From the NCBI GenBank assembly GCA_964016885.1, contig CAXHJY010000151.1:186001-250000 (forward strand): a stretch of 64,000 nt of DNA, in the 5' to 3' direction. Within the stretch, counting starts at the first letter, position 1. Every line of letters starts with the position of its first letter. Source of the stretch: Eledone cirrhosa. Lineage: Eukaryota. The notes under the pieces were generated by a model. That model had not been told where the DNA came from and ran no database searches. It worked only from the letters and a program-made list of their open reading frames with translations. The position numbers were made by a program, and so were the translations under genes. This document shows, in pieces, positions 22,131 to 45,535 of this stretch.

Positions 22131-22184
22131 TATAAACGTATAACCCTAACCCAACCCTAACCCTAACCCAACCCCAACCCTAAC

Positions 22185-22216: not shown

Positions 22217-22219
<3 letters not shown>

Positions 22220-22344
22220 TTTTTAACATTGTTTTGTTTTTCTTTTCTTTTCTTATTCAGATGACAAACGGCAGAGGATACAACAGAAGAAAAGAACAAA
22301 GATAATTATTATTATTATTACTATTATTATTTGTTTTATTATAA

Positions 22345-23400
22345 TCAAAATATGCTGTTAGTTAGATCTGCATTGCGTACATTTTATATAATTTATGCCA
22401 GTTCCTTTTCTGCATATCGAACATGGCCATTTCCCTGACGGAATAGAGTTTTGTCCTCTTTCGTGACACAAAGTACAGCCAGCGGCATCATTGCGGACAG
22501 ACTTAATCCCGAATTGCACTGACACACTGCCTCGCAATACGGAACACCGCACGTCTTTGATCTTCTTCCCGTCGATCAGCCTCCTTGCCATGCTAAGTAC
22601 ACCTGACGTCTAGCTTCTCTCTTAGCGGCGGCTTTATATTCTTCTCTACTCCCACTAATTTTCCAAGCATTCCATGCTAGCCTTTAGTCTCCAATGGCCC
22701 GATCTACCGTGCTGTCCCACCACCATGTCACTCTCTGTCTGGTTGGAACTCTGATCCAGCCACAAGTTTAATCAGTAGCCTGCAATAAGTTGTCACATAA
22801 GAAAATCGAGTTCTCATGTATGTCATACGACTGTGAATCGTCTTCTTTTTCGTCATACACATATTGAAGGGCTTTCCTAAATTTCTATTTTAGTGAAATC
22901 TCTTTTAGCTTCCAGACCTTTCTTTTTTCCACATCTTCCTGTATGTCTCAATCATACCTGGAGCTGTCCAACATGACCATTGAAATCCCCTGCTAGCATA
23001 ACGATGTCTCCGTCCTGTCATTGTGGCTGTTTGTAAAAATTGCTTGTAAATGAAGTCTTTCTTTTCTTTACCTAGCAGAAGCAATTAACACTAACCCAAC
23101 TGTAACACTAACCCTAACACTAACTTATGCAGGCCTAGGTAAAGACAAGAAAGATAAAACAAGGAGTGATGCTTCTTGAATTTTGTGATGCAAGTGTTTT
23201 AACCATTTGCAAAACCAACTTCCACAAACCTGCCTCACTGCCGCCTAATAACCTACAAATCAGGCAAGCACAGAAGCCGGATTTCTCGGTAGTTAGGCAG
23301 CGAGACAGACAGATGGGGTGTGAAGTACCAGGGTGTGCCCCGGGGAGGAATGTTTCCCACAGCGTGGGTTGGTTGTTGGTGATGTCTCGGTTATCTTGAG
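22345..23400. pseudogene. Rearranged RTE remnants in both orientations
   Basis: SGKWPCSICRKG (minus), TWWWD-like segment (minus), LLEFCDA..LTICKTNFHKP (plus, endonuclease region). Partly duplicated at 24270-24800. Confidence 0.7.
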
Positions 23401-23763
23401 ACGGAGTGAGACGTGCAGGAATACTCTCACGGAATCGCCAAATGAGGTTTATTTTTCAACATAGTCCCTGGAATGAAACAATGTGGTTATTAAGAAGAAT
23501 TGAAATTAATGTAAGATTTCACAGATCTATGATCAATCCTTCACAGTCAGCTTACAAAGTTTTCAGCCAAACCTTGTGTATTTCCAACATTTCAAACCCT
23601 ATCTAGGACTACATTATCTAATGTACAGTACAGTAGTTAGTATTAGTGGCTATCAGACATAGTGTATCTAAATGCAACATTTTTAACATTGTTTTTTCTT
23701 TTCTTTTCTTTTCTTATTCAGATGACAGACGGCAGAGGATACAATAGAAGAAAAGAACAATGA

Positions 23764-24186
23764 TAATTATTATTATTATTATTGTTGTTATTCCTTGAAT
23801 CTCAGTCATTGATGTTGGTTAACTGGAAAGTCCGTTGGAATGAATATCAAGCCACTACCTGCAGCCTCAGATATTCAGGACGTATCGGAGGGTTCTTGCT
23901 GTTCCAAGCAAGCATGCCTTTTGAAGCGTTCCAAAAAGCGTGAAGGGGCCGATTTTCTTTAACCATCCCTGGAAACTTTTGGAGATGGACAAAAAACTGG
24001 AACACAATAGACCTGACCTGGTGGTTGTGGACAAAGAAAAAAGATCGTGTCTGATTGTGGATGTGGCCTGCCCGTTCAACACGAGAGTGCAAGAGAAGGA
24101 GAGGGAGAAAATTAACCGATACCAGGACCTAAAGTGGGAGGTGAAAAGGATTTGGAACTGCCATGAAGTCAAAGTGATCCCGATTG

Positions 24187-24187
<1 letters not shown>
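23764..24187 (-). mobile_element. R4/Dong-like (REL endonuclease) non-LTR 3' fragment with 5' inversion, inserted in (TTA)n
   Basis: Plus strand 23985-24185: HNRPDLVVVDK...LIVDVACP...KEREKINRYQDLKWEVKRIW (PD-D/ExK fold). Minus strand 23985-23867: WLKKIG...LQKACLLGTARTLRYVL*, then UTR and (TAA)n. Confidence 0.8.
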
Positions 24188-24239
<52 letters not shown>

Positions 24240-24834
24240 TATTATTTGTTTTATTATAATCAAAATATGCTGTTAGTTAGATCTGCATTGTGTACATTTT
24301 ATATAATTTATGCCAGTTCCTTTTCTACATATCGAACATGGCCATTTCCCTGACGGAATAGAGTTTTGTCCTCTTTTCTACTCATCAACACTCATTCGTG
24401 ACACAAAGTACAGCCAGCGGCATCATTGCGGACAGACTTAATCCTGATTTGCACTGACACACTGCCTCGCAATACGGAACACCGCACGTCTTTGATCTTC
24501 TTCCCGTCGATCAGCCTCCTTGCCATGCAAAGTACACCTGACGTCTAGCTTCTCTCTTAGCGGCGGCGGCTGTATATTCTTCTCTACTCCCACTAATTTT
24601 CCAAGCATTCCATGCTAGTCTTTAGTCTCCAATGGCCCGATCTACAGTTTCTGTCTCAACTCGTCTATGCTTGGTCGTTCCCGCACATTGACATTGCACA
24701 TCCAACGGAGCATGCTTGCTTCATTTCTCTCCAGCCGTCGCATGTCCTCTGCAGTTGCTGCCCGTGTCTCACTACCATGCAGCATCGCGCATCTAAACCT
24801 GGCCCTTACCCTAACCCCAACCTCTTTGGTTTTC

Positions 24835-25672
24835 GTTTTCTCGACGGCTAGCCGCATTTCGTGATCCGCCTTTCGATTGCGCTTCCGTCGCGGCAAAAGA
24901 ATTGCCTTTCCAGACCGCCGTCGCCCGACCGGACCCATGATAGAAGACGTTCGTTACCGTTGGAGCAACGCAAATTACTCCTCGGTTGACGCCAAAAACG
25001 AACGCCTTCCCGCCTCGCGCCGCCTTCTCCTCGCCGACCCTCGGCCTCGACGATTAGCCACTTTCCGTCACAGCAGTAGATACGCGTCCGTCGTAATAGC
25101 CGTCATTTTAACGCAGGAGAAACGCCTAATTGCCCTGCACCGCGTTTGACGGCGATCTACGACGGCGACGATGCGCGCACTCTTCCTTGCTGCGACGAAG
25201 GTTTCGGCTTTTCGTCGTGGACCCGGTCAGGTCATGCCGCTGACCTCGCGTTACGGCGACGCGAGAAGACGTTCGTTACCGCTGGAGCAACGCAAATTAC
25301 TCCTCGGTTGACGCCAAAAACGAACGCCTCGCGCCGCCGCTTCCTCCTCGGCCTCGACGATTAGCCGCTTTCCGTCACAGCAGTAGATACGCGTCCATCG
25401 TAATAGCCGTCATTTTAACGCAGGAGAAACGCCTTGACGACGATATACGACGGGTCGACGACGCGCGCACTCTTTCTGCTGCGACGAAGGTTTTGGCTTT
25501 TCGTTGTGGACCCGGTCGGGTCATGCCTCTGACCTCGCGTTGCGTCGCCACCGCCGCGGCGGGCTTGGGTTTAGCCGTAGCTACCCTCGTTTTGCCAACG
25601 GCGACGCGAGAAGACGTTCGTTACCGCTGGAGCAACGCAAATTACTCCTCGGATGAGGCCAAAAACGAACGC
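24835..25672 (+). repeat. Orphan rearranged copy of the rDNA 5'ETS/IGS-like sequence
   Basis: Shares gaagacgttcgttaccgctggagcaacgcaaattactcctcgg and neighbouring blocks with 31795-32860. Confidence 0.75.
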
Positions 25673-25751
25673 TGAAGAGATATTGTCCATGGATATCGGG
25701 AATTTTACCCGCCCTAGATAGATAGATAGATAGGGATGTATGTATGTATGT

Positions 25752-25791
<40 letters not shown>

Positions 25792-26170
25792 GTATGTATC
25801 TTTCTCATTCTCTCTGTATGTATGTATGTATGTATATATATATAATTATATATTTATAGACATCCTGAAAGCTTTTTAAATGTCTGAGAGATTGGCTAAA
25901 TATGTTTTGCAGGTATGACCAGTAAGAGAGAGGTAAGTTATTTCAAAACAATTCTTTGACCATTATTTTAAGGTACTATCTCAGTGTATTTTTAAATTGA
26001 CCTCTTGATAGGATGAAATGACCTGTATAATTTTTTTCATATTTAGATGGAATAGAAGAAAAACAAGAAAAATGAAATGAATTCAAACAGAAAATATACA
26101 CCAATGCCAATGGAGGTATGATTTCAGTTTAATCTTAACCTAATGACCACTTTACAGAGTGTACTGGATA

Positions 26171-26241
<71 letters not shown>

Positions 26242-26689
26242 AGGAAGCTCCAACCGTTAAGGTTGTCTTTCCATTTATTAATATATTGTGTATTTACTCC
26301 ACTAAACTGTTGAGTGCTTTATATCAGTTATAAAAAAATTTCAGCTTGTTGAATCCCAAAATAGTTGTTGAAACAGCCACAGCTCAGCCGTCGGGGTCCT
26401 GAATATTTATCATATATATATACGTATGAGTGTGTGTGTTTTGAGAATTAATAATTATATAAACAAGTTTGTAATGAACAATTTATTTCTTATCAAAACT
26501 GTATAAACATGATATTATTTACAGTAAGAATAACAATAATAATGATGGTTTCTAGTAAAGGTGGAAGGCCAGTAATTTGGGGGAGGGGAAAGTTGATTAA
26601 ATCGAAGAGAGAAAGAAAGAAAAAACAGAACGGGAAGGAGAGGGGATGGCAAGAGGTCCGGTGTCGCAGGAGAGAGGGGAGGGTGGTTG

Positions 26690-27185
26690 AGCTTTGAGTC
26701 TAGGGCAAGAGGGCAGAAATGCTGCGCCCCACGGATAAGACGGCAAAAATATTCTCGCGGACGATGGCCAGAGATACCCAATGCAACAACCACCCAACCT
26801 CGCGGTGTTCCCTCCTCAGATGGGCTGCTGACTCTCCGATCTTTTGGAGGAGCTCGGCAGTACAAGGTCCAAGTACTCCTGGGGTCTCGACGTTGACTGG
26901 TGCAGAGAGGAAGTGGCCGGACAATCCTCGGTATTTGTTTATTTTACGTTCTTCTGCGAGGTGGGCTGCGATGCCGGGGTTTGTGACCGAAACGACTTGG
27001 AAACGAAGTTGTAGGCGGAGATTGTGTCGTAGCTGGTGGTGTCCCAGATGAGGGACCTACGTCCTTCGAATGGGAAGAGAGTGATTCCGTCGGGGCGCTT
27101 GCCATCTCCGGGACCTGTTGGCCCCAGTTGTGATGGGAAGCCAGCTGCGTCCAGGCTTCTTCTCAATATGTCGTTGACAACGACG
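26690..27185 (-). pseudogene. CRE-clade-like non-LTR REL endonuclease remnant
   Basis: DGKRPDGITLFPF.G.RSLIWDTT..DT and VETPGVLG...VSLAIVREN..VL in two frames (frameshifted). Confidence 0.7.
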
Positions 27186-27733
27186 TGTATCTATTCAATA
27201 ATTATTTGAATATTGAAATTTTAGGTTTAACTACCTTTTAAACCAAATACATTAAGAAAGGCATGACCAACACCACATCATTTTTATTTCTATTTTGAAA
27301 GTAGGTTTATAAGTATTAAATTTCAGTAGATTCTTATATCCTTCATGGTGGTCTGGTGGGAGATACGAGAGATGGTGGAGGTTCTGGTCTGGGGTTCAAT
27401 CCTGCTCAGGAGATACTCTAAGGGGGTTCATACTAAACTTCTTCAGTGTTTCTTATCTCTAGAGACAAATATATATACATAAGGTAATCTGGTAAAGTTG
27501 TTAGAACATCACATAGAATTCTTTGTAGTATTTTTTCCAGTTCTTCAATCTGAGTTCAACTTTACTTTTCTTCCATTCGGGGTTGATAATAACGTACCAG
27601 TCAAATACTAGGGGTTAATTCTTCCTCTATATCTCTTTCTCACTCTCTGTCTGTTTTATTAAGACCTGGAGAGGTGATGTACTCTACCAGGTTTTATAAT
27701 GAGTGATGGGGTCATACCTGCCTGCTACACCTC

Positions 27734-28055
27734 TGTGTACTAAGTGTAGCATATTATATCCTTGTTCAGGGCCTTCCTGACATTACTGTGTACTAAGGGT
27801 AGCATTTTATATCCTTGTTCAGGGCCATCTTAACATTGCTGTGTACTAAGTGTAGCATATTATATCCTTGTTCGGGGCCTTCCTGACATTAGTGTGTACT
27901 GAGTGTAGATTTTAACATCCTTGTTCTGGGCCTTCCTAACATTACTGTGTACTGAGTGTAGATTTTAACATCTTTGTTCAGAGCCTTCCTTACATTACTG
28001 TGTACTAAGTGTAGCATTTCATATACTTGTTCTGGGCCTTCCTAACGTTACTGTG
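27734..28055. repeat. 53-bp minisatellite, 6 copies
   Basis: tgtgtactaagtgtagcatattatatccttgttcagggccttcctgacattac at 53-bp spacing. Confidence 0.9.
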
Positions 28056-28840
28056 GAAATAGTAGTTTATATCCAATATGTAATATAGATATGGATTCTA
28101 CAGGACTAAAACTCATTAATATGAGGGGTATTAGTAGATTATATGCCATATTTAATAGAGAAATGGCTTCTACAAGACTAAAACTCATTAATATGAGGGG
28201 TATTACAGTTTATATGCCATATTTAATACAGAAATGGCTTCTAAAGGACTAGAACTCTTTAAATTGAATAAAATAGTAGTATATATCCTATGTTTAATAC
28301 AGAAATGCCTTCTAAAGGACTCATTAATATGAGGGTATTAGTAGATTATATAACATATTTAATACAGAAATGGCTTTTAAATTCAGGGACTCGTTAATTT
28401 GATGGAAATAGTAGTGTCTATGCAATATTTAATACAGAAATAGCTTCTACAGGACTAAAACTAATTAATATGAGGGGTATTAGTAGTATATGTGCCATAT
28501 TTAATACAGAGATGGCTTCTAAATGGAGGTATCTCATTAATTCGATTGAAATGGTAGTGTATATGCAATATTTAATACAGAAATAGCTTCTACAAGAATA
28601 AAACTCATTAATATGAAGGTTATTATTACATTATATGCCATATTTAATACAGAAATCGGTTCTAAAGGACTAGAACTCTTTAATTCAAATCAAATAGTAG
28701 TATAAAGCAATATTTACTACAGAAATGGCTTCTACAAGACTAAAAATCCTTAATATGAGGGGTATTGTTAGATTATATACCATATTTAATACAGAAATGG
28801 CTTCTAAATGAAGAAATCTCTTTAATTCGATAGTAATAGT
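28056..28840. repeat. ~71-bp AT-rich minisatellite, ~11 diverged copies
   Basis: Recurrent atatttaatacagaaatggcttcta...ctcattaatatgagggg. Confidence 0.85.
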
Positions 28841-29487
28841 AATAATAATAATAGTAATAGTAATAATACAGCCAATTTTCCACGCAATACTTTTAGTTAG
28901 CACCCCGAACGCATAATTGGGAATATAATCACTTATTTCCTAATGTTTGTTGAGTGAGTTGGGAAAAAAAACTTGGGAAATATATTTTCAGGGTCTCAAA
29001 ATCTTAAAGAGAAAAAAAAGTCCTGTGGAAGGTAGCAAAACAATTAGGAAGAAAATGGTTTGAAGTTGGTTGGTGAGTATAAGATTACAGTATCTTGTTG
29101 ATTTCTATAAAGTTTACTTTTAACTGAATTGGTAAAAATGGATAAATTAGAAGACACAATATAATAACTAATATTGTCTTCTAAAACAGGGAATAAAAAT
29201 ATGTTGGTGTATTGGGGGGGGGGGGGGGTAAACATGTGAGTTAATGGGAATGTTTTTGTTTGTTTTTATTGAAACATATTCAATCTACAGATAGGTTGTT
29301 ATAGTTATTTAGTCTCGGGTCTGCCATTATCTGCAGATTTATAATTGAGGGGTGTTCCAGGTGTGACCACCCTACATTATTCCTAGAGATTGTTACTCCT
29401 TCATTCTTCAGTCATCTTGGTCTTCTTATGAGATGGTGGTGTAGTCTTATTTATTGTTAAGGTTATGGTCTTCCTTTGTCCACACTC

Positions 29488-29525
<38 letters not shown>

Positions 29526-29779
29526 AAAGGCTTCCTTCTCTGGAAAAAGATGATTTAATATTCACAACCATCTGTCTAATTGTTTTCTGATGAGAATAAA
29601 GTTAATCTTGCTTGTATGTCTACCTGATCAAATGACTGGCTGATATCTTGAAGTCATTTACACCACAGAACTGTAGGAGTCTTGATCCCTCAAGCCATAC
29701 CTCTAGCCATCATGTACTCCAAAAGAGTCTCACCTTGGTGCTACTCAACATGTCCATTAAATTTAGCAGCAAGGATGCC

Positions 29780-30550
29780 CTCTTCTTAGTGAGAGACAAC
29801 TACAAGAGAGGTTCTTAGAGAAGAATAAGCCACTATAGTTAACTTTTGTTGACATAGAGAACCCCGATCTGTCATCTGGTGGTCCTTAAGGAAACTAGGT
29901 GTAGGGGAATGGCTTGTGAGGACAGTGCAAGCTATGTACAAGGGTGCTGTCAGTAAAGTGAGAGGAGGAATTCCAGAAACAAAGTAGGTGTACATCAGGG
30001 TTCGGTCCTCAGTCCGCTCTTGTTCATTATAGTCCTCCCTCCCTCCCTCCCTCCCTCCCTCCAAGCCATAACAGAGGAGGAGTAGTTTAAGACTGGATGC
30101 CCATGGGAACTTCTCTATGCTGACGATCTGGTTCTTATAGCAGAATCAGTAGAGGAGCTAGCTAGAGAATAAATTCTGGCTATGGAAACAGCAGTAGTTG
30201 GAATCAAGAAGACTGAGAGTGAACCTAGCTAAGACAAAAGTGTTTATAAGTAGAAGAGAGGACAAAACTCTGATTCTGTCAGGGAAATGGCCATGTTCGA
30301 TATGTAGGAAAGGAGTTGGCATAAATTCTATGAAATGTAGTACGCAATGCAGATCTTGGCTACACAAGAGATGTAGTGGGATAGCAGGAAAACTGACTGA
30401 CAGGTAGGGAGAAATACGTATGCAGTAGATGTACAGGGAAATTTGACAGAGATTGCAGTGATAGACACATTTTTCAAATGCAGGTGGGATCTATAGAGGG
30501 AGTTGATAGCTTCTGATACCTAGGTGATCAGATTAGTAAGGGAGGAGGGT
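29780..30550 (+). pseudogene. Decayed RTE RT core with PHD-like Cys/His insertion
   Basis: GVHQGSVLSPLLF and PWELLYADDLVL in the DNA translation, followed by LRVNLAKTK...WPCSICRKG...C..QC..WLHKRCSG. Confidence 0.8.
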
Positions 30551-31080
30551 GATATAAAATATATTGTTATCATGACTGTCTTTATTATTTAAATTACCTC
30601 TGTCTATTTACAGATTTTACAGAGTGTACTGGGTGCTTTTATGATGGGAGCAGCAACTCTATACGATTTTACAGAGTGTACTTGGTGCTTTTATCATGGC
30701 ACATGGCAGCAGCAGCAGCAGCAACTACGATTTTACAGAGTGTACTTGGTGCTTTTTACTCTGACATCAGCACTGAGGAAGTTGTCATATTTTCAGCTAA
30801 ATTAATGAGTAGAAAAACCAAGTTTCTGCTACAAAAAATTCTCAGATTCAAGGGAGACATTCAGTTTAAGTATGGTATACTGTCACTAAGGCAGCAAATT
30901 GGCAGAGTCGCTAGAATATCAGATAGCATTCTTTACATTATTTGTTTCAGCTCTCTGTTCTCTCAATTCAAATCCTGCTCAGGTCAACTTTGCCTTTCAT
31001 CCATACAAAATAGATTAATAAAAGTACCAGTGTATTACTGGGGTCAATTCTTCTTCTAACTCTTCTGCACTTCCATTCTC

Positions 31081-31159
<79 letters not shown>

Positions 31160-31379
31160 GCTTCTTTAGAACACATCTGCTGTATTCAGACCTGGAGCGG
31201 AGATGGGCTCCACCAAGTTTTAAAAATTGCCCTTTAAGCGCTGTATGTCAATATGGTGCCCCTATGATTCCCTCCCTCAGGAGTTATGGGACCATAGATA
31301 CTGTCAATTGTAAAGAATAACAGAGATATTCAGTGCTAGTGTGGTGTTCTGTCAGTTGTGGAGATTGATGAATCTAAAC

Positions 31380-31582
31380 AGAAATATCAACAGCACTTTT
31401 CATTTCTGAGTAACACATTTGTTACCAAGTGCTGCATGGCTGGAATGAAAATCAGTGCTGTGAAAACCAAGACATTCATCCTCTCAAGGAAGCTTGTGCA
31501 GTGCACTCTACATGTAAATGGAGTCCCACTGAAGCAGGTAGAAAAGTTCATGTATCTCGAAGCTGTGTTCACGAGTGATGAC
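31380..31582 (+). pseudogene. RTE/BovB-type RT fragment
   Basis: AGMKISAVKTK...VNGVPLKQVEKFMYL. Confidence 0.65.
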
Positions 31583-31707
31583 AGAGACGGCAAAGGCACA
31601 ACACACAACAGAAGAAAAGAACAATGACAATTATTATTATTATTTGTTTTATTAGTTTTATTATAATAAAAATTGTGCTGTTAGTTTGCTTGCTATACCA
31701 TCATGTA

Positions 31708-31794
31708 CCCTAACCCTAAACCTAACCCCAACTCCAACTCTGACCCTAAACCTAACCCCAACCCCAACCCTAACCCTAACCCTAACCCTAACCC
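31708..31794 (-). repeat. Interstitial telomeric tract (CCCTAA)n
   Basis: Four perfect CCCTAA at 31768-31791 preceded by degenerate hexamers. Confidence 0.85.
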
Positions 31795-32545
31795 ACGATA
31801 GAAGACGTTCGTTACCGCTGGAGCAACGCAAATTACTCCTCGGTTGACGCCAAAAACGAACGCCTTCTCGACGGCTAGCCGCATTTCGTGATCCGCCTTT
31901 CGATTGCGCTTCCGTCGCGGAAAAAGAATTGCCTTTATAGGCCGCCGCCGCCCGACCGGACCCACGATAGAAGACGTTCGTTACCGCTGGAGCAACGCAA
32001 ATTACTCCTCGGTTGACGCCAAAAACGAACGCCTTCTCGACGGCTAGCCGCATTTCGTGATCCGCCTTTCGATTGCGCTTCCGTCGCGGAAAAAGAATTG
32101 CCTTTATAGGCCGCCGCCGCCCGACCGGACCCACGATAGAAGACGTTCGTTACCGCTGGAGCAACGCAAATTACTCCTCGGTTGACGCCAAAAACGAACG
32201 CCTTCTCGACGGCTAGCCGCATTTCGTGATCCGCCTTTCGATTGCGCTTCCGTCGCGGAAAAAGAATTGCCTTTATAGGCCGCCGCCGCCCGACCGGACC
32301 CACGATAGAAGACGTTCGTTACCGCTGGAGCAACGCAAATTACTCCTCGGTTGACGCCAAAAACGAACGCCTTCTCGACGGCTAGCCGCATTTCGTGATC
32401 CGCCTTTCGATTGCGCTTCCGTCGCGGAAAAAGAATTGCCTTTATAGGCCGCCGCCGCCGCCCGACCGGACCCACGATAGAAGACGTTCGTTACCGCTGG
32501 AGCAACGCAAATTACTCCTCGGTTGACGCCAAAAACGAACGCCTT
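31792..32545 (+). repeat. 169-bp GC-rich tandem repeat (~4.4 copies), probable rDNA IGS/5'ETS origin
   Basis: Period 169/169/172 from repeated ORF ends. Ends ~360 bp upstream of the 18S start. Confidence 0.85.
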
Positions 32546-32903
32546 CCGGTTCGGGCGACGTAAAAGTCTGTAGCCTTTTCGCCGATCCTCGACGATTATC
32601 CGCCTTCCGAACAACCGCCTTTCCGCCGTCACAGCAGTAGGTACTCGTCCGTCGTAATAGCCGTCATTTTAATGCAGGAGAAACGCCTAAATGCACTGCG
32701 ATTGACGACGATCTACGACGCGCTTACTCTTCCTTGCTGCGACGAAGGTTTCGTTCGGCTTTTCGTCGTGGACCCGGTCAGGTCGTGCCGCTGATCTCGC
32801 GTTGCGTCGTTACCGCTGGAGCAACGCAAATTACTCCTCGTTTAACGCCAACATCGAACGCGCTTCGGTTCTCGGTCGTCGTTGTTTTGTTTCGTGCGGA
32901 AGA

Positions 32904-33088
32904 TACCTGGGTGATCCTGCCAGTAGTCATATGCTTGTCTCAAAGCTTAAGCCATGCAAGTGGAAGTTCATGCCGTAAACGAAAATGGTGAAACCGCGAA
33001 TGGCTCAGAAACCGGATCTAATCCTCGGGACCGTATTCCTCACCGCGAGGAGAGGATAACTGTGGCAATTCTAGAGCTAATACATGCA
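32904..33088 (+). rRNA. 18S rRNA 5' fragment (pseudogenic, first ~185 nt)
   Basis: tacctgggtgatcctgccagtagtcatatgcttgtctcaaag...gtgaaaccgcgaatggctca...ggataactgtggcaattctagagctaatacatgc matches the conserved eukaryotic SSU 5' end. Confidence 0.92.
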
Positions 33089-33096
33089 ATTGAGAT

Positions 33097-36000
33097 CGGA
33101 GAGGGAGCGATCCGTCTGCTTGATTCCGATAACGAACGAGACATTCGTATCCGAAAGAACGTTTGTCTGGAAACTGGTGCAGTCAGTGAGTCGAAAAAAA
33201 AATATCTCGGTGGTAGTAGCAAATATTCGAACGAGACATTCGTATGCGAAAGAACGTTTGTCGGTGGTAGTAGCAAATATTCGAACGAGACATTCGTATG
33301 CGAAAGAACGTTTGTCTGGAAGTGGCGATCCATGCCCGGTGGATAGTTGGTTCCGGGTTTTACTATGATTGTTGCAAAACAGAAACTTAAAGGGATTGAC
33401 AGAATTTGCGATTCCGGAGAGAGGGCGATCCGTCTGCTTGATTCCGATAACGAACGAGACATTCGTATCCGAAAGAACGTTTGTCTGGAAACTGGTGAGT
33501 CAGTGAGTCGAAAAAAAAATATCTCGGTGGTAGTAGCAAATATTCGTATGCGAAAGAAAAGATCTCGGTGGTAGTAGCAAATATTCGAACGAGACATTCG
33601 TAGGCGAAAGAAAAATATCTCGGTGGTAGTAGCAAATATTCGAACGAGACATTCGTATGCGAAAGAACGTTTGTCGGTGGTAGTAGCAAATATTCGAACG
33701 AGACATTCGTATGCGAAAGAACGTTTGTCTGGAAGTGGCGATCCATGCCCGGTGGATAGTTGGTTCCGGGTTTTACTATGATTGTTGCAAAACAGAAACT
33801 TAAAGGGATTGACAGAATTTGCGATTACGGAGAGGGGGCGATCCGTCTGCTTGATTCCGATAACGAACGAGACATTCGTATCCGAAAGAACGTTTGTCTG
33901 GAAACTGGTGAGTCAGTGAGTCGAAAAAAAAATATCTCGGTGGTAGTAGCAAATATTCGAACGAGACATTCGTATGCGAAAGAACGTTTGTCGGTGGTAG
34001 TAGCAAATATTCGAACGAGACATTCGTATGCGAAAGAACGTTTGTCTGGAAGTGGCGATCCATGCCCGGTGGATAGTTGGTTCCGGGTTTTACTATGATT
34101 GTTGCAAAACAGAAACTTAAAGGGATTGACAGAATTTGCGATTACGGAGAGGGGGCGATCCGTCTGCTTGATTCCGATAACGAACGAGACATTCGTATCC
34201 GAAAGAACGTTTGTCTGGAAACTGGTGAGTCAGTGAGTCGAAAAAAAAAATATCTCGGTGGTAGTAGCAAATATTCGAACGAGACATTCGTATGCGAAAG
34301 AACGTTTGTCGGTGGTAGTAGCAAATATTCGAACGAGACATTCGTATGCGAAAGAACGTTTGTCGGTGGTAGTAGCAAATATTCGAACGAGACATTCGTA
34401 TGCGAAAGAACGTTTGTCTGGAAGTGGCGATCCATGCTCGGTGGATAGTTGGTTCCGGGTTTTACTATGATTGTTGCAAAACAGAAACTTAAAGGGATTG
34501 ACAGAATTTGCGATTCCGGAGAGGGGGCGATCCGTCTGCTTGATTCCGATAACGAACGAGACATTCGTATCCGAAAGAACGTTTGTCTGGAAACTGGTGA
34601 GTCAGTGAGTCGAAAAAAAAATATCTCGGTGGTAGTAGCAAATATTCGAACGAGACATTCGTATGCGAAAGAACGTTTGTCGGTGGTAGTAGCAAATATT
34701 CGAACGAGACATTCGTATGCGAAAGAACGTTTGTCGGTGGTAGTAGCAAATATTCGAACGAGACATTCGTATGCGAAAGAACGTTTGTCTGGAAGTGGCG
34801 ATCCATGCTCGGTGGATAGTTGGTTCCGGGTTTTACTATGATTGTTGCAAAACAGAAACTTAAAGGGATTGACAGAATTTGCGATTCCGGAGAGGGGGCG
34901 ATCCGTCTGCTTGATTCCGATAACGAACGAGACATTCGTATCCGAAAGAACGTTTGTCTGGAAACTGGTGAGTCAGTGAGTCGAAAAAAAAATATCTCGG
35001 TGGTAGTAGCAAATATTCGAACGAGACATTCGTATGCGAAAGAAAAATATCTCGGTGGTAGTAGCAAATATTCGAACGAGACATTCGTATGCGAAAGAAC
35101 GTTTGTCTGGAAGTGGCGATCCATGCCCGGTGGATAGTTGGTTCCGGGTTTTACTATGATTGTTGCAAAACAGAAACTTAAAGGGATTGACAGAATTTGC
35201 GATTCCGGAGAGGGGGCGATCCGTCTGCTTGATTCCGATAACGAACGAGACATTCGTATCCGAAAGAACGTTTGTCTGGAAACTGGTGAGTCAGTGAGTC
35301 GAAAAAAAAATATCTCGGTGGTAGTAGCAAATATTCGAACGAGACATTCGTATGCGAAAGAAAAATATCTCGGTGGTAGTAGCAAATATTCGAACGAGAC
35401 ATTCGTATGCGAAAGAACGTTTGTCTGGAAGTGGCGATCCATGCCCGGTGGATAGTTGGTTCCGGGTTTTACTATGATTGTTGCAAAACAGAAACTTAAA
35501 GGGATTGACAGGATTTGCGATTCCGGAGAGGGGGCGATCCGTCTGCTTGATTCCGATAACGAACGAGACATTCGTATCCGAAAGAACGTTTGTCTGGAAA
35601 CTGGTGAGTCAGTGAGTCGAAAAAAAAAATATCTCGGTGGTAGTAGCAAATATTCGAACGAGACATTCGTATGCGAAAGAACGTTTGTCGGTGGTAGTAG
35701 CAAATATTCGAACGAGACATTCGTATGCGAAAGAACGTTTGTCGGTGGTAGTAGCAAATATTCGAACGAGACATTCGTATGCGAAAGAACGTTTGTCTGG
35801 AAGTGGCGATCCATGCCCGGTGGATAGTTGGTTCCGGGTTTTACTATGATTGTTGCAAAACAGAAACTTAAAGGGATTGACAGAATTTGCGATTCCAGAG
35901 AGAGGGCGATCCGTCTGCTTGATTCCGATAACGAACGAGACATTCGTATCCGAAAGAACGTTTGTCTGGAAACTGGTGAGTCAGTGAGTCGAAAAAAAAA

Positions 36001-36510
36001 TATCTCGGTGGTAGTAGCAAATATTCGAACGAGACATTCGTATGCGAAAGAACGTTTGTCTGGAAGTGGCGATCCATGCTCGGTGGATAGTTGGTTCCGG
36101 GTTTTACTATGATTGTTGCAAAACAGAAACTTAAAGGGATTGACAGAATTTGCGATTCCGGAGAGGGGGCGATCCGTCTGCTTGATTCCGATAACGAACG
36201 AGACATTCGTATCCGAAAGAACGTTTGTCTGGAAACTGGTGAGTCAGTGAGTCGAAAAAAAAATATCTCGGTGGTAGTAGCAAATATTCGTATGCGAAAG
36301 AAAAGATCTCGGTGGTAGTAGCAAATATTCGAACGAGACATTCGTATGCGAAAGAAAAATATCTCGGTGGTAGTAGCAAATATTCGAACGAGACATTCGT
36401 ATTCGAAAGAACGTTTGTCTGGAAGTTGCGATCCATGCCCGGTGGATAGTTGGTTCCGGGCTTTACTATGATTGTTGCAAAACAGAAACTTAAAGGAATT
36501 GACAGAATTT
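33097..36510 (+). repeat. Chimeric 18S/28S-derived satellite: ~10 units, mostly 263 bp plus 0-2 extra ~54-bp subrepeats
   Basis: Unit markers at 33347, 33760, 34077, 34449, 34820, 35138, 35456, 35828, 36091, 36450 (periods 413, 317, 372, 371, 318, 318, 372, 263, 359). Units contain recognisable SSU and LSU conserved motifs. Confidence 0.9.
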
Positions 36511-36526
36511 TCGAATCGACATCAAC

Positions 36527-36885
36527 TCGGCTACGGCTATCCCGTCGAGTACGAGAGTATCGCGGGATCAGAGCAACGGTTTGCTAGGCTGCCTCTGAGC
36601 GATAACGGCTGAACGCCTCCTCTAAGCCGGAACCCTAGCCGGACCCGAGTTGTTTTTCGACAAGCGTCTCGACCTTCTTAAGGCCCATGCCTTAGTTTGG
36701 CGATTGCCGTCCGTTCGCCGACGGCGGCAGCGTCAGCGGAAATGCCATTCTGTGACGACTACGACGATTCGTCGTCGTCGTCGTCCATTCGATTTCCTGA
36801 AAGAGATAGAGACTAAAGTGATCAAATTGTTCGGAGTTACGTGCTTAGTAGAGCAGCTACCACACTGCAATCTATTGAGAGTTTT
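36527..36885 (+). rRNA. 28S rRNA 3'-end fragments (pseudogenic)
   Basis: Sarcin-ricin-loop-like agtacgagag (36548), ggctgaacgcctc..taag, and agtagagcagct...ctgcaatctattga as in the LSU 3' terminus. Confidence 0.75.
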
Positions 36886-37629
36886 CTGACGAACGATACA
36901 ATCCGCCCACGTGGCGCCAGAAAGGGAGAAGAAAAGAAAAGTTAGACGCCGCCGATCGATCGGTTCGTTGTTTTACGTGTACACAGCTTGTGTGTGTGTC
37001 TGTATGTGATACAAGCCGCCTATCCGTCTTCCAAGTAAGTTTTGTGTGTAGACTGCGGAAAGAAATCCAATCCGCCGTCTAGGCGGTTCTGCCGCCGACC
37101 CATACTTTTGCGAGTCGCTCCCGGGAAAGACAGGCGGCAAGACGGCGTGTATACACGACGCCTTCCGTCTTCCGCCTCGAACCCGGGCAAACGTTCCTTT
37201 ATTCGTCCACGCCTTCCCGCTTCGATCGCGAGAAAGTAATCAATCTGTTTTGTGTGTGTGTCTGTGTGTGATACAAATTTGTTTTCTTAATTTGATAACC
37301 ATGAATTGTTTCAACACCGGCCCTTTTAAGGGCCACTTATATTTTCAATAATCAGTTTAAATGGGTTGCACCGTAGCCACTTGGTAATACACTGCAAATC
37401 TCCCGTCAATCTATGAAGGTTTTGTAGTAGATTAGATCAAAACACAATCAGCAAGACAGTAATGGAATGAATAATATAAACATTTGTTTATAATTAAAGC
37501 CTTAAGATGTCCCTCCCTCCCTCCCTTCCTTCCTTCCTTCCTTCCTTCCTTCCTTCCTTCCTTACGATATACACTTTAATAACATTGAAACTTATTTAAT
37601 AAGTTTAAATTTTAAACACTTTTTATTCA

Positions 37630-37762
37630 GACGTACCGCGATAAGTAACTAGATATGTTCTAACGAATAATCCGCGATGTGGCGAGGATTACCGCGATAG
37701 GAAATTAGATACGTTCCAAAGAAATATCCGCGAAAAGTGAACCGCGATATAGCGGGTTCACC
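37630..37762. mobile_element. Possible pogo/Tigger-like MITE end with ccgcgat subterminal repeats
   Basis: Five ccgcga motifs ending in accgcgatatagcgggttcac. The partner TIR was not found. Confidence 0.4.
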
Positions 37763-37925
37763 AGCCAGTGTATTACTGGTACTTTATTTTATCGACCCCC
37801 ATAAGGATGAAAGGCAAAGTTAACTGTGCAATAACAAAGGGAGATAACCTCGTCTTTTTTTTTTTACGGAGTTATTTCCCTTTAAATTTTATCTATTACT
37901 TATGATGATACAATTTAATCAGTTC

Positions 37926-38051
37926 TTAGCTGTCGAGACACTGCATCCTTTAAAACCTCCATGGAACAAGCTACCTGCAACAGTTGTTAGCTGTCGAGAC
38001 ACTGCATCTTTTAAAACCTCCATGGAACAAACTACCTGCATCAGTTGTTAG
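37926..38051 (+). repeat. 61-bp tandem duplicate of the CR1 ORF2 3' end
   Basis: Encodes WNKLPA.VVSCRDTASFKT, homologous to the reverse complement of ~18563-18627. Confidence 0.85.
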
Positions 38052-38318
38052 GGTCTGAGTTCAAATCACGCCGAGGAGGTTAACTTTGCCTTTCATCCTT
38101 ACGGGGTCGGTCGGAAAACGAACCATTCCCGGTTCGCTTTCGAAGCGGGTTTCCGAAAACAGCGCTTCTCTCGACCGGGCCCGTCGTCCGCTCGGCGGTG
38201 GTTTTCATCGTCCCAGGCACGGCTAACAGGCGGAGACGGGACAAACGCGCGTGTTCCTTTTTTTATCAGCCGCAGCGCCGTTCGTATATATGCTTAGGTT
38301 GTTTTTTTTTTAAATATC

Positions 38319-38534
38319 CTAAGTTAAGTTGGGGCTAAGTTAAGTTGGGGCTAAGTTAAGTTGAGGTTAAGTTGAGTTGGGGTTAAGTTAAGTGGGGGTT
38401 AAGTTAAGCTGGGGTTAAGTTAAGTTGAGGTTAAGTTAAGTTGGGGTTAAGTCAAGTTGGGGTTAAGTTAAGTTGGGGTTAAGTTAGGTTGGGGTTAAGT
38501 TAAGTTGGGGTTAAGTTAGGTTGCGGTTAAGTTA
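38319..38534 (+). repeat. 16-bp telomere-variant array (TTAAGTTAAGTTGGGG), ~13 copies
   Basis: Seen directly; G-rich strand is +. Confidence 0.85.
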
Positions 38535-41500
38535 CATTCGCCGCCGGACTTCAGCTTCCTCATTTAGCATGGGCAGTTTTTCTTGAAAATCACACCACAC
38601 ACAGCAAATGTGTGTCCGCACATGTACCAGTAATTACAGATCGATTCCGGTGAAAATTCACTGAAAACGGGCCATCCGGCCCTGTGCGTCGATCGTGGGC
38701 CGGCCGGATGTTGACGGATCGATGTGTAATTAGAAGTACATGTGCGGACACTCATTGGCTGTGCGTGGTATGCATTTCAGCAAGATATCTCCGTAACATC
38801 AAGAGTTATGGCTGTGGAGGCACACCTAGTCAAACGTAAACAAGGTCTGGAGCGTTTACGCTTCGCGATTTTGTTTACGTTTGACTAGGTGTGCCTCCAC
38901 AGCCACAACTCTTGATGTTACGGAGATATCTTGCTGAAATGCATACCGCGCACAGGCAATGAGTGTCCGCACATGTACTTCTAATTACACATCGATCCGT
39001 CAACATCCGGCCGGCCCACGATCGACGCACAAGGCCGGATGGCCCGTTTTCAGTGAATTTTCACCGGAATCGATCTGTAATTACTGGTACATGTGCGGAG
39101 ACACATTTGCTGTGTGTGGTGTGATTTTCAAGAAAAACTGCCCATGCTAAATGAGGAAGCTGAAGTCCGCCGGCGAATGGTGTGCTTCGAAGAAAACTAA
39201 TTCGAAAATGACCGTTTGCAGGCGGAGTAACCTTTTCGATCGTGGGCCAGCCGCCCGTGGTGGGATCCATCTGTAATTACTGGTACATGTGCGGACATAC
39301 ATTTGCTGTGTGTGGTGTGATTTTCAAGAAGAACTGCCCATGCTAAATGAGGAAGCTGAAGTCCGCCGGCGAATGGTGTGCTTCGAAGAAAACTAATTCG
39401 AAAATGACCGTTTGCAGGCGGGGTAACCTTTTCGATCGTGGGCCAGCCGCCCGTGGTGGGATCCATCTGTAATTACTGGTACATGTGCGGACACACATTT
39501 GCTGTGTGTGGTGTGATTTTCGAGAAAGACTGCCCATGCTAAATGAGGAAGCTGAAGTCCGCCGGCGAATGGTGTGCTTCGAAGAAAACTAATTCGAAAA
39601 TGACTATTTGCCGGCGGAATCACCTTTTCGGTCCTGGTCCGGCCGGATGTTGCCGGATCGATCGGAAATTTGTGGACCATGTTCGGAAGGCCATTGTGCA
39701 TGTGTGGTGAAAAAAATTTGTGTCGAAATCTTCTCGGAAAATAACGGATCGCCGGCGGAGATTGCCATTTCGATCGTGGGCCGGCCGGATCTTGTCGGAT
39801 CGATTCGGACATATGTGCATCGTGTTCGCAAGGCCCTTGTCTATGTGTGGTGTGATTTTCATAAAGAAATTCCGAAAAACCCAGTTTTAAATCTGATTTC
39901 GCCAAAGAATTTTGGCTATCAGATCGGGTTGAAAGGTATGGTTTCAGGTCGATCTGAAAGTCTAAAATGGAATTCACTCGGTTAGCTAACTATTGATATA
40001 TCGGAGATATCTTTCTGAAAATCACACCACACACTCCCAATGAGTGTCTGCACATGTACCAGTAATTACAGATGGATCCCACCACGGGCGGCCGGCCCAC
40101 GATCGAAAAGGTTACTCCGAAGCACACCATTCGCCGGCGGAATTCATTTAGCATGGGCAGTTTTTCTCGAAAATCACACCACACACAGCCAATGAGTGTC
40201 CGCACATGTACCAGTAATTACAGATGGATCCCACCACGGGCGGCTGGCCCACGATCGAAAAGGTTACTCCGCCTGCAAACGGTCATTTTCGAATTCGTTT
40301 TCTTCGAAGCACACGATTCGCCGGCGGACTTCAGCTGCCTCATTTAGCATGGGCAGTTTTTCTCGAAAATCACACCACACACAGCAAATGTGTGTCCGCA
40401 CATGTACCAGTAATTACAGATCGATTCCGGTGAAAATTCACTGAAAACGGGCCATTCGGCCCTGTGCGTCGATCGTGGGCCGGCCGGATGTTGACGGATC
40501 GATGTGTAATTAGAAGTACATGTGCGGACACTCATTGGCTGTGCGTGGTATGCATTTCAGCAAGATATCTCCGTAACATCAAGAGTTATGGCTGTGGAGG
40601 CACACCTAGTCAAACGTAAACAAGCTCTGGAGCGTATACGCTTCGCGATTTTGTTTACGTTTGACTAGGTGTGCCTCCACAGCCACAACTCTTGATGTTA
40701 CGGAGATATCTTGCTGAAATGCATACCACGCACAGCCAATGAGTGTCCGCACATGTACTTCTAATTACACATCGATCCGTCAACATCCGGCCGGCCCACG
40801 ATCGACGCACAGGGCCGGATGGCCCGTTTGCAGTGAATTTTCACCGGAATCGATCTGTAATTACTGGTACATGTGCGGACACACATTTGCTGTGTGTGGT
40901 GTGATTTTCGAGAAAGACTGCCCATGCTAAATGAGGAAGCTGAAGTCCGCCGGCGAATGGTGTGCTTCGAAGAAAACTAATTCGAAAATGACCGTTTGCA
41001 GGCGGGGTAACCTTTTCGATCGTGGGCCAGCCGCCCGTGGTGGGATCCATCTGTAATTACTGGTACATGTGCGGACACACATTTGCTGTGTGTGGTGTGA
41101 TTTTCGAGAAAGACTGCCCATGCTAAATGAGGAAGCTGAAGTCCGCCGGCGAATGGTGTGCTTCGAAGAAAACTAATTCGAAAATGACTATTTGCCGGCG
41201 GAATCACCTTTTCGGTCCTGGTCCGGCCGGATCTTGCCGGATCGATCGGAAATTTGTGGACCATGTTCGGAAGGCCATTGTGCATGTGTGGTGAAAAAAA
41301 TTTGTGTCGAAATCTTCTCGGAAAATAACGGATCGCCGGCGGAGATTGCCATTTCGATCGTGGGCCGGCCGGATCTTGTCGGATCGATTCGGACATATGT
41401 GCATCGTGTTCGCAAGGCCCTTGTCTATGTGTGGTGTGATTTTCATAAAGAAATTCCGAAAAACCCAGTTTTAAATCTGATTTCGCCAAAGAATTTTGGC

Positions 41501-44500
41501 TATCAGATCGGGTTGAAAGGTATGGTTTCAGGTCGATCTGAAAGTCTAAAATGGAATTCACTCGGTTAGCTAACTATTGATATATCGGAGATATCTTTCT
41601 GAAAATCACACCACACACTCCCAATGAGTGTCTGCACATGTACCAGTAATTACAGATGGATCCCACCACGGGCGGCCGGCCCACGATCGAAAAGGTTACT
41701 CCGAAGCACACCATTCGCCGGCGGAATTCATTTAGCATGGGCAGTTTTTCTCGAAAATCACACCACACACAGCCAATGAGTGTCCGCACATGTACCAGTA
41801 ATTACAGATGGATCCCACCACGGGCGGCTGGCCCACGATCGAAAAGGTTACTCCGCCTGCAAACGGTCATTTTCGAATTCGTTTTCTTCGAAGCACACGA
41901 TTCGCCGGCGGACTTCAGCTGCCTCATTTAGCATGGGCAGTTTTTCTCGAAAATCACACCACACACAGCAAATGTGTGTCCGCACATGTACCAGTAATTA
42001 CAGATCGATTCCGGTGAAAATTCACTGAAAACGGGCCATTCGGCCCTGTGCGTCGATCGTGGGCCGGCCGGATGTTGACGGATCGATGTGTAATTAGAAG
42101 TACATGTGCGGACACTCATTGGCTGTGCGTGGTATGCATTTCAGCAAGATATCTCCGTAACATCAAGAGTTATGGCTGTGGAGGCACACCTAGTCAAACG
42201 TAAACAAGCTCTGGAGCGTATACGCTTCGCGATTTTGTTTACGTTTGACTAGGTGTGCCTCCACAGCCACAACTCTTGATGTTACGGAGATATCTTGCTG
42301 AAATGCATACCACGCACAGCCAATGAGTGTCCGCACATGTACTTCTAATTACACATCGATCCGTCAACATCCGGCCGGCCCACGATCGACGCACAGGGCC
42401 GGATGGCCCGTTTTCAGTGAATTTTCACCGGAATCGATCTGTAATTACTGGTACATGTGCGGACACACATTTGCTGTGTGTGGTGTGATTTTCACGAAAA
42501 ACTGCCCATGCTAAATGAGGAAGCTGAAGTCCGCCGGCGAATGGTGTGCTTCGAAGAAAACTAATTCGAAAATGACCGTTTGCAGGCGGAGTAACCTTTT
42601 CGATCGTGGGCCAGCCGCCCGTGGTGGGATACATCTGTAATTACTGGTACATGTGCGGACACACATTTGCTGTGTGTGGTGTGATTTTCGAGAAAGACTG
42701 CCCATGCTAAATGAGGAAGCTGAAGTCCGCCGGCGAATGGTGTGCTTCGAAGAAAACTAATTCGAAAATGACTATTTGCCGGCGGAATCACCTTTTCGGT
42801 CCTGGTCCGGCCGGATCTTGCCGGATCGATCGGAAATTTGTGGACCATGTTCGGAAGGCCATTGTGCATGTGTGGTGATAAAAATTTGTGTCGAAATCTT
42901 CTCGGAAAATAACGGATCGCCGGCGGAGATTGCCATTTCGATCGTGGGCCGGCCGGATCTTGTCGGATCGATTCGGACATATGTGCATCGTGTTCGCAAG
43001 GCCCTTGTCTATGTGTGGTGTGATTTTCATAAAGAAATTCCGAAAAACCCAGTTTTAAATCTGATTTCGCCAAAGAATTTTGGCTATCAGATCGGGTTGA
43101 AAGGTATGGTTTCAGGTCGATCTGAAAGTCTAAAATGGAATTCACTCGGTTAGCTAACTATTGATATATCGGAGATATCTTTCTGAAAATCACACCACAC
43201 ACTCCCAATGAGTGTCTGCACATGTACCAGTAATTACAGATGGATCCCACCACGGGCGGCCGGCCCACGATCGAAAAGGTTACTCCGAAGCACACCATTC
43301 GCCGGCGGAATTCATTTAGCATGGGCAGTTTTTCTCGAAAATCACACCACACACAGCCAATGAGTGTCCGCACATGTACCAGTAATTACAGATGGATCCC
43401 ACCACGGGCGGCTGGCCCACGATCGAAAAGGTTACTCCGCCTGCAAACGGTCATTTTCGAATTAGTTTTCTTCGAAGCACACCATTCGCCGGCGGACTTC
43501 AGCTTCCTCATTTAGCATGGGCAGTTTTTCTTGAAAATCACACCACACACAGCAAATGTGTGTCCGCACATGTACCAGTAATTACAGATCGATTCCGGTG
43601 AAAATTCACCGAAAACGGGCCATTCGGCCCTGTGCGTCGATCGTGGGCCGGCCGGATGTTGACGGATCGATGTGTAATTAGAAGTACATGTGCGGACACT
43701 CATTGGCTGTGCGTGGTATGCATTTCAGCAAGATATCTCCGTAACATCAAGAGTTATGGCTGTGGAGGCACACCTAGTCAAACGTAAACAAGCTCTGGAG
43801 CGTATACGCTTCGCGATTTTGTTTACGTTTGACTAGGTGTGCCTCCACAGCCACAACTCTTGATGTTACGGAGATATCTTGCTGAAATGCATACCACGCA
43901 CAGCCAATGAGTGTCCGCACATGTACTTCTAATTACACATCGATCCGTCAACATCCGGCCGGCCCACGATCGACGCACAGGGCCGGATGGCCCGTTTTCA
44001 GTGAATTTTCACCGGAATCGATCTGTAATTACTGGTACATGTGCGGACACACATTTGCTGTGTGTGGTGTGATTTTCACGAAAAACTGCCCATGCTAAAT
44101 GAGGAAGCTGAAGTCCGCCGGCGAATGGTGTGCTTCGAAGAAAACTAATTCGAAAATGACCGTTTGCAGGCGGAGTAACCTTTTCGATCGTGGGCCAGCC
44201 GCCCGTGGTGGGATACATCTGTAATTACTGGTACATGTGCGGACACACATTTGCTGTGTGTGGTGTGATTTTCGAGAAAGACTGCCCATGCTAAATGAGG
44301 AAGCTGAAGTCCGCCGGCGAATGGTGTGCTTCGAAGAAAACTAATTCGAAAATGACTATTTGCCGGCGGAATCACCTTTTCGGTCCTGGTCCGGCCGGAT
44401 CTTGCCGGATCGATCGGAAATTTGTGGACCATGTTCGGAAGGCCATTGTGCATGTGTGGTGATAAAAATTTGTGTCGAAATCTTCTCGGAAAATAACGGA

Positions 44501-45535
44501 TCGCCGGCGGAGATTGCCATTTCGATCGTGGGCCGGCCGGATCTTGTCGGATCGATTCGGACATATGTGCATCGTGTTCGCAAGGCCCTTGTCTATGTGT
44601 GGTGTGATTTTCATAAAGAAATTCCGAAAAACCCAGTTTTAAATCTGATTTCGCCAAAGAATTTTGGCTATCAGATCGGGTTGAAAGGTATGGTTTCAGG
44701 TCGATCTGAAAGTCTAAAATGGAATTCACTCGGTTAGCTAACTATTGATATATCGGAGATATCTTTCTGAAAATCACACCACACACTCCCAATGAGTGTC
44801 TGCACATGTACCAGTAATTACAGATGGATCCCACCACGGGCGGCCGGCCCACGATCGAAAAGGTTACTCCGAAGCACACCATTCGCCGGCGGAATTCATT
44901 TAGCATGGGCAGTTTTTCTCGAAAATCACACCACACACAGCCAATGAGTGTCCGCACATGTACCAGTAATTACAGATGGATCCCACCACGGGCGGCTGGC
45001 CCACGATCGAAAAGGTTACTCCGCCTGCAAACGGTCATTTTCGAATTAGTTTTCTTCGAAGCACACCATTCGCCGGCGGACTTCAGCTTCCTCATTTAGC
45101 ATGGGCAGTTTTTCTTGAAAATCACACCACACACAGCAAATGTGTGTCCGCACATGTACCAGTAATTACAGATCGATTCCGGTGAAAATTCACCGAAAAC
45201 GGGCCATTCGGCCCTGTGCGTCGATCGTGGGCCGGCCGGATGTTGACGGATCGATGTGTAATTAGAAGTACATGTGCGGACACTCATTGGCTGTGCGTGG
45301 TATGCATTTCAGCAAGATATCTCCGTAACATCATGAGTTATGGCTGTGGAGGCACACCTAGTCAAACGTAAACAAGGTCTGGAGCGTTTACGCTTCGCGA
45401 TTTTGTTTACGTTTGACTAGGTGTGCCTCCACAGCCACAACTCTTGATGTTACGGAGATATCTTGCTGAAATTCATACCACGCACAGCCAATGAGTGTCC
45501 GCACATGTACCTGTAATTACACATCGATCCGACGA
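38535..45535. repeat. 1584-bp higher-order satellite of inverted 196/152-bp monomers, array 1
   Basis: ORF periodicity 1780 (=1584+196), 1584, 1584. Palindrome centres at ~38857, 40637, 42221, 43805, 45389. Confidence 0.95.

Follow-up and report, generated by a model that had tools for sequence, protein, structure and literature searches.

Linear, telomere-capped molecules carry the ribosomal RNA genes (rDNA) of ciliates and slime moulds. In a telomere-capped rDNA minichromosome, the same outward telomere repeat abuts the unit at both ends, the rRNA genes are intact, and the molecule is free and linear and has an origin of replication. The subject here is a cassette at about 31707–38534 of a 64,000-nt stretch of Eledone cirrhosa DNA (contig CAXHJY010000151.1, positions 186,001–250,000, forward strand). 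The whole stretch is called the window, and coordinates refer to it. A first-pass annotation had likened the cassette to such a molecule.

Degraded rDNA units are also known, both away from the arrays and at array edges (PMC5381670; this and the other published systems are characterised from the available portions of the reports). A further relevant system is the chain of short pieces left by some forms of repair. Such chains contain inserts of 21–245 bp with microhomology at about half of the joints (PMC13065848). For templated insertions in yeast, rDNA and DNA near telomeres are named as donors (PMC13065848, PMC11724301).

Both ends of a 45S unit survive in order in the cassette. The 5′ end consists of DNA resembling an external transcribed spacer (ETS) followed by 18S positions 1–186, and the 3′ end of the last ~400 positions of the 28S model followed by spacer-like DNA. 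Most of 18S and 28S is gone, as is 5.8S. The gap holds sense-strand pieces that come from four or more distant rRNA positions, with two backward jumps in their order. The explanation favoured here is that the cassette is a broken 45S copy, likely dead, whose middle was probably rebuilt by template switching at microhomologies and amplified tenfold, and whose flanking tracts are not a pair of telomeres.

Surviving ends and scrambled middle

From left to right, the cassette and its left border consist of the following parts.

31707–31794, + strand: degenerate CCCTAA tract (the left tract), period 6, 14.7 copies, 85% matches
31791–32546, + strand: 169-bp tandem repeat, 4.5 copies, 99%, derived from 5′ ETS-like subrepeats
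32547–32903, + strand: 5′ ETS-like DNA, 357 bp, CpG-rich, stopping at the 18S start
32904–33100, + strand: 18S rRNA, nt 1 to ~186, diverged; profile positions 1–177, E 2e-38
33097–36520, + strand: mosaic tandem array of ten units of 263–413 bp
36521–36903, + strand: 28S rRNA 3′ end, Rfam LSU 3005–3399, 61.6 bits
36904–37278, + strand: 3′ ETS/spacer-like DNA, ~370 bp, GC 0.53, CpG observed/expected ratio (o/e) 1.43
37314–37358, + strand: orphan stem-loop of a histone 3′ untranslated region, Rfam 36.6 bits, ~410 bp beyond the 28S end

Donor positions are given on distant eukaryotic rDNA references or Rfam models, not on the native Eledone unit. The references came from a scan of genome contigs with 33 nt taken from the start of 18S in the window. 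At least 54 matching loci carry eukaryotic rDNA as contamination of prokaryotic assemblies, and 26 of these loci were used. The 18S profile was built from 13 of the 26, and locus L024 served as the ruler for 28S. The significance of piece placements, tracts and motifs was judged against shuffled sequence. A collapsed eukaryotic 18S was also noted at L030:4637–5388, on a contig of a Rubritalea metagenome-assembled genome. There, the Rfam model is covered from end to end by 752 nt, with a leap from nt ~42 to ~1095, reflecting a pseudogene or a misassembly.

The first-pass annotation had given the order and strand of the parts as CCCTAA tract, 169-bp repeats, 18S start, array, 28S end and G-rich tract, and this arrangement was borne out. 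Its view of a defective, collapsed unit with both ends kept likewise agrees with 18S at 32904–33100 and 28S at 36521–36903. Rfam, searched over all 64 kb at curated thresholds, returns just two matches, the 28S 3′ end and the histone stem-loop. It gives no 5.8S match in the window, and by Rfam and the 18S profile the window contains rDNA fragments alone and no intact unit.

The repeats to the left of 18S had been annotated as ETS-like. A 66-nt core of the 169-bp unit is present again at 32807–32866, just before 18S (score 97, against a maximum of 38 in 300 shuffles), which supports the label. From its position and this homology, 32547–32903 is probably the 5′ ETS itself. CpG o/e in the cassette is 1.4–1.8, against 0.16 in the left flank. 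The 5′ end of 18S had been called exact, which overstates the match. Nucleotide 8 is G in the cassette and T in 24 of the 24 references covering that site, and the best identity to any reference is 75% over 201 nt.

The array had been read as a scramble of 18S and 28S, and shuffle tests, the profile and Rfam uphold this for its ten units. Each unit runs through 18S 1299–1337, an unassigned stretch, 28S (Rfam model 1442–1484, E 1e-4), a second unassigned stretch, 18S 1106–1157 and 18S 380–397. Four pieces are firmly placed. These are the three 18S pieces and the 28S piece at reference positions 1577–1610, each scoring above 500 of 500 shuffles in sense orientation, with background scores on the antisense strand. 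The shortened first copy of the 380–397 piece exceeds 499 of 500. Matches to the 18S profile occur exclusively on the + strand of the window.

The monomer thus comes from four non-contiguous 18S and 28S donors and not from one contiguous stretch of spacer or gene. Its order, 1299 to 28S to 1106 to 380 and back to 1299, contains the two backward jumps, so it is no plain deletion. At the joint between 18S ~397 and ~1299 the donors overlap by 5 nt, and at the weakly mapped joints by 1–3 nt. The unique rRNA-derived DNA of the whole cassette amounts to ~840 bases.

Finer labels within the monomer (18S 885–893, 18S 940–947 and a 5.8S-like word) are exact 8–10-mers alone and do not rise above shuffles. 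A role as a structured RNA was also considered and rejected, since folding of the monomer does not exceed that of shuffled sequence (z −0.38).

The units of the array are close copies of one another, with a mean identity of 99.0% over the tails of all ten. The joints are identical in every unit, and a 54-bp subrepeat lies within the units. The 28S motif occurs 1–4 times per unit and 25 times in the array. Particular variants are common to units 2 and 3, to 4, 5 and 9, to 6 and 7, and to 2 and 10. The outer units retain reference-like bases missing from the inner ones, unit 10 in the 1135–1153 core and unit 1 in the 386–397 piece. Shared variants together with older bases in the outer units suggest a young array shaped by slippage and unequal exchange.

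At the 3′ end, the sarcin-ricin loop differs from four of four references at two bases, and a short insertion lies beyond it. The DNA that follows contains a 27-nt direct repeat at 36988 and 37250, and its position and composition suggest that 36904–37278 is 3′ ETS or spacer.

The histone stem-loop is the sole match in the window to the consensus motif of this element, and none of 100 shuffles matches. No histone reading frame was found upstream of it in the three + frames of 37001–37330. It may have been captured as a scrap, or may be left over from units that linked rDNA and histone genes, and it bears on whether the lineage links histone genes to 45S units.

The flanking tracts and their surroundings

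The left tract consists of 14 hexamers in register. Seven are perfect, including the four that adjoin the rDNA. The tract truncates the leftmost ETS-like unit and joins it through a 4-nt overlap that is also in register, a joint that would fit telomerase addition and ordinary end joining equally. In size, the tract falls within the class of short interstitial telomeric sequences (2–25 hexamers, PMC6410037).

That the CCCTAA tract is not a chance feature was confirmed, with 17 matches of this type across the window where shuffles average 0.26. The first-pass annotation had also taken the two tracts to bracket the cassette. A C-rich tract does lie on the left and a G-rich one on the right, but the tracts do not delimit the rDNA, as 10 of the 17 matches are found elsewhere, at 21879–24820. 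The window has six CCCTAA-type tracts, all on the + strand and within 10 kb (21865–31794). Three of them (21865, 21995 and 22141) lie inside one short repeated element unrelated to rDNA. One of the others is at 23093, and another, at 24799, precedes a second ETS-like copy.

24799–25675, + strand: sibling copy, a ~24-nt CCCTAA-like tract followed by diverged ETS-like repeats, without 18S

The sibling lies 7 kb upstream of the cassette; like the histone stem-loop and the palindromic satellite listed below, it had gone unremarked in the first-pass annotation. Its ETS-like repeats form subrepeats of ~320–350 bp and are, in pieces, 76–100% identical to the main copy. In the 64-kb window this pairing of tract and ETS-like repeats recurs, and no second whole cassette does. 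Common descent of the two tracts themselves was considered and finds no support, with the sibling scoring 40 against pure CCCTAA and 38 against the main tract.

The same AT-rich scrap of repeat stands upstream of both ETS-like copies, at 24223–24278 and 31630–31686 (86% identical). It is also found at 22259 and 23721.

To the right of the stem-loop, the following elements occur.

37634–37760, no strand assigned: piece with a 44-nt direct repeat
37765–37824, − strand: fragment of a dispersed repeat with several further copies in the window
37919–38051, + strand: scrap of a long interspersed nuclear element (LINE) with a 61-bp tandem duplication, from the end of the reverse-transcriptase open reading frame (ORF) of the LINE at 18532–21405
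38048–38109, + strand: second fragment resembling a short interspersed nuclear element (SINE), cut where the GC-rich piece starts
38110–38300, no strand assigned: GC- and CpG-rich piece, GC 0.58, CpG o/e 1.63, spacer-like in composition
38320–38534, + strand: G-rich minisatellite (the right tract), 16-bp unit, 13.4 copies, 91%, single copy in the window
38535–45531, with a second block at 49307–54145, no strand assigned: 1584-bp palindromic satellite with 196-bp subrepeats

The piece at 37634–37760 is presumably a DNA-transposon end, and we take the repeats at 37765–37824 and 38048–38109 to be SINE-like. The first-pass annotation had placed about 1 kb of transposable-element debris before the right tract. 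Indeed, the tract lies ~1040 bp beyond the spacer-like DNA, past the stem-loop, two opposed SINE-like scraps, the LINE scrap and the GC-rich piece.

The right tract had been called telomere-like, which its sequence does not bear out. It is built on a 16-bp unit and contains TTGGGG eight times and TTAGGG not once. Its reverse complement has a weak likeness to the left tract, scoring 67 against 46 ± 7, with 2 of 300 shuffles as high. No common flanking word longer than 4 nt, as a target-site duplication would leave, was found around the pair when the tract ends were taken as insertion ends. With different repeats, the ~1040-bp gap and no such duplication, the tracts are, on present evidence, not the two ends of one molecule.

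The GC-rich piece was considered as an ETS-like homologue after inspection by eye. This was rejected, as 38105–38315 scores 22–26 and is equalled by 68–266 of 300 shuffles. Folding of the piece is also unremarkable (z −0.87), and no RNA family reaches a useful Rfam score in 37900–41400.

The palindromic satellite begins at the base right after the right tract. Its units are ~99% identical and CpG-rich, and a 2.8-kb piece, which has a duplicate at another place in the window, interrupts it. An origin of this satellite as rDNA spacer was likewise rejected (4–31 of 100 shuffles score as high).

The window as a whole is repeat-rich DNA of animal type, with microsatellites, a LINE, multi-kb duplications 94–100% identical and the palindromic satellite. 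No tRNA was found in it, and two short ORFs had no homologue on database search.

18532–21405, − strand: LINE with an uninterrupted 957-aa endonuclease and reverse-transcriptase ORF

A database search with this ORF gave 419 matches, the best relatives being 53–83% identical. Few of the matches carry organism names; these are 32–37% identical and come from scattered animals. A short frame at 23925–24257, followed by an (ATT)n run, is presumably the end of an R4-type retrotransposon that carries the restriction-like endonuclease, and it has no Pfam match. Near-identical tandem and dispersed duplications of ~6.5 kb, with a 48-bp minisatellite, were noted at 1–18800 and 56900–64000.

How the cassette may have arisen

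The favoured explanation would start inside or beside a tandem rDNA array, which is the simplest place. There, a polymerase or an end-joining step may have made the joints through short overlaps. In a tandem array a backward jump is equivalent to a forward jump into the next unit, so every piece keeps its strand. Slippage and unequal exchange could then have produced the 54-bp subrepeat and the ten units now present. The unit may belong to a neighbourhood made up of repeat scraps and duplications of young age, or have been captured into one, and it is probably functionless. The cassette would thus record a multi-jump rearrangement inside rDNA, and is most likely legible junk, a satellite caught at birth with ten copies and the older bases at its edges.

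Several observations weigh against this explanation. The donors were mapped on distant references, so the joint overlaps are approximate and some apparent decay may be native. Many rRNA helices still pair in the Rfam alignments, and part of the divergence may therefore be native too. At a further joint, from 18S 1153 to 1235, the 6-nt overlap depends on a match of 9 nt at the latter position. Three monomer stretches (36339–36360, 36225–36262 and 36415–36451), a piece read by eye as 18S 885–947 among them, have no rRNA placement above shuffles, and the joints of that piece overlap by only 1 nt. All four firm pieces are sense, a 1 in 16 result by chance that an RNA template would explain equally well. 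In addition, the left joint, with its four perfect hexamers and its overlap in register, is what telomerase addition could leave. Finally, the pieces of reported repair chains often differ in orientation (PMC13065848, PMC11724301), which leaves some weight to an RNA-templated origin.

In an RNA-templated origin, a reverse transcriptase or an RNA-copying repair polymerase would have jumped from template to template among pre-rRNA, fragments of rRNA and the 3′ end of a histone mRNA; the chimeric cDNA would then have been inserted and amplified. The cassette would then be the fossil of one sense-strand copying event whose monomer seeded a satellite of shuffled ribosome core motifs. Such an origin seems doubtful. 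Besides the sense orientation of the firm pieces, it would explain that of the histone stem-loop and the piece sizes of 18–56 nt. Chimeras of 28S and LINE-1 do exist, 83% of them same-sense (bioRxiv 10.1101/2025.02.02.635956), and the window holds a LINE with an open ORF as well as a same-sense scrap of the end of that ORF. However, ~640 bp and a SINE-like fragment in antisense lie between this scrap (37919) and the rDNA; no LINE 3′ end or tail is joined to rRNA, and no target-site duplication longer than 4 nt was found at the tract ends. Nascent 45S would have to be the template for the spacer-like DNA, ~1.1 kb on the 5′ side and ~370 nt on the 3′ side, and the survival of both ends in native order is simpler as a deletion in DNA. 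If the RNA-template account were true, the cassette would exemplify, in a germline, serial jumps from one rRNA fragment to another. For the left end taken by itself, telomerase may have capped the 5′ ETS-like repeats where they had broken, or an old end of the rDNA array, and the capped end would later have become internal by fusion. This one-sided healing, though unlikely, would be compatible with the same history of the interior as in the favoured explanation. The C-rich strand points away from the rDNA, as healing would leave it, and to this are added the hexamers and overlap at the joint. Moreover, the origin given for short interstitial tracts of 2–25 hexamers is the repair of breaks with the help of telomerase (PMC6410037), and in several organisms rDNA spacers are capped by telomeres (PMC1635262). 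Against healing, half of the hexamers are variant though the neighbouring arrays are 99% identical, like tracts sit in an unrelated repeat, and the overlap equally suits end joining. Given the second joint of CCCTAA and ETS-like DNA at 24799, healing needs either a second event or a native link between the two.

The linear, telomere-capped mini-rDNA of the first-pass annotation, later re-integrated, is very improbable. The placing of the C-rich and G-rich tracts, their weak inverted similarity and the ordered rDNA ends speak for it. Beyond the mismatch of repeats, the distance across unrelated scraps and the missing duplication, the right tract abuts a satellite, five more CCCTAA tracts lie to the left, the rRNA genes are destroyed, and the 64 kb hold a single whole cassette. 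A functional mini-unit for RNA polymerase I (Pol I), yielding a decoy or a small-RNA precursor from conserved rRNA motifs, would draw on the two retained ends of the transcription unit, the ETS-like repeats and the undepleted CpG. It is similarly hard to credit: there is no demonstrated promoter, the monomer is unstructured, the subrepeat number varies freely and only one cassette occurs in the window. An assembly artefact from collapsed rDNA reads is extremely unlikely. Both rDNA and satellites are hard to assemble, and A-runs differ by one base between units. Against an artefact count the variants shared by particular units, as after unequal exchange, the older bases of the outer units, the joints common to all ten units and the diverged sibling 7 kb away.

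Comparison with known systems

No precedent was found for a satellite with a monomer built from non-contiguous pieces of 18S and 28S, as judged by titles and abstract openings in a search with most subscription journals outside it. Conserved motifs are multiplied in the array, such as the 28S motif with its 25 copies, and would mislead rDNA copy-number estimates, fluorescence in situ hybridization and primer-based assays.

By its sequence, the cassette would be classed as an rDNA pseudogene. It has rRNA homology outside an intact unit, its interior is lost, and sites invariant among the references are changed. Like the pseudogenes in the available account of PMC5381670, it is degraded 45S and spacer outside an intact array, in repeat-rich DNA. 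Those described there are near full-length units or small scattered strings, whereas here the interior is scrambled and tandemly amplified.

An example for a tandem repeat born from rDNA is the repeat of tomato derived from the intergenic spacer (IGS), and the 169-bp array is of this kind (PMC2679016, in the part available). In contrast to such IGS-derived satellites, the ten-unit array is made of 18S and 28S coding pieces instead of spacer subrepeats, and has ten copies.

Chains made through microhomology-mediated break-induced replication or chromoanasynthesis have short pieces joined at overlaps of a few bases, as the monomer seems to have (PMC13065848, PMC11724301). As far as those reports describe them, the chains are experimental, draw on donors from many loci and contain frequent inversions. 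The firmly placed donors of the monomer belong to a single gene family and are all sense, and the monomer is fixed in a genome and amplified.

The 28S/LINE-1 chimeras (bioRxiv 10.1101/2025.02.02.635956) and SINE28 (PMC10946416) are alike in that rRNA fragments are recopied, mostly in sense. In the portions available, theirs is a single piece of rRNA attached to the 3′ end of a LINE, together with a target-site duplication. The cassette instead has many pieces and spacer DNA, and shows no duplication at its tract ends.

Telomere-abutting rDNA of Magnaporthe (PMC1635262, as far as described) shares with the cassette a CCCTAA-type tract touching rDNA spacer-like DNA at one end. Here the tract is short, degenerate and internal, the other end is non-telomeric and the genes are broken. 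From linear capped rDNA the cassette differs in its unlike end repeats, its distant right tract and the reduction to ~840 unique rRNA bases.

Finally, Potamopyrgus snails and two weevils have tandem units of rDNA and histone genes (PMC8382920, in the part available), which likewise place a histone-gene element just downstream of 28S. Unlike these units, the cassette has the stem-loop alone, without a histone frame in the + frames of 37001–37330. What is distinctive about the cassette is its monomer of non-contiguous 18S and 28S pieces lying between two ends in native order; otherwise it is rDNA debris of known kinds.

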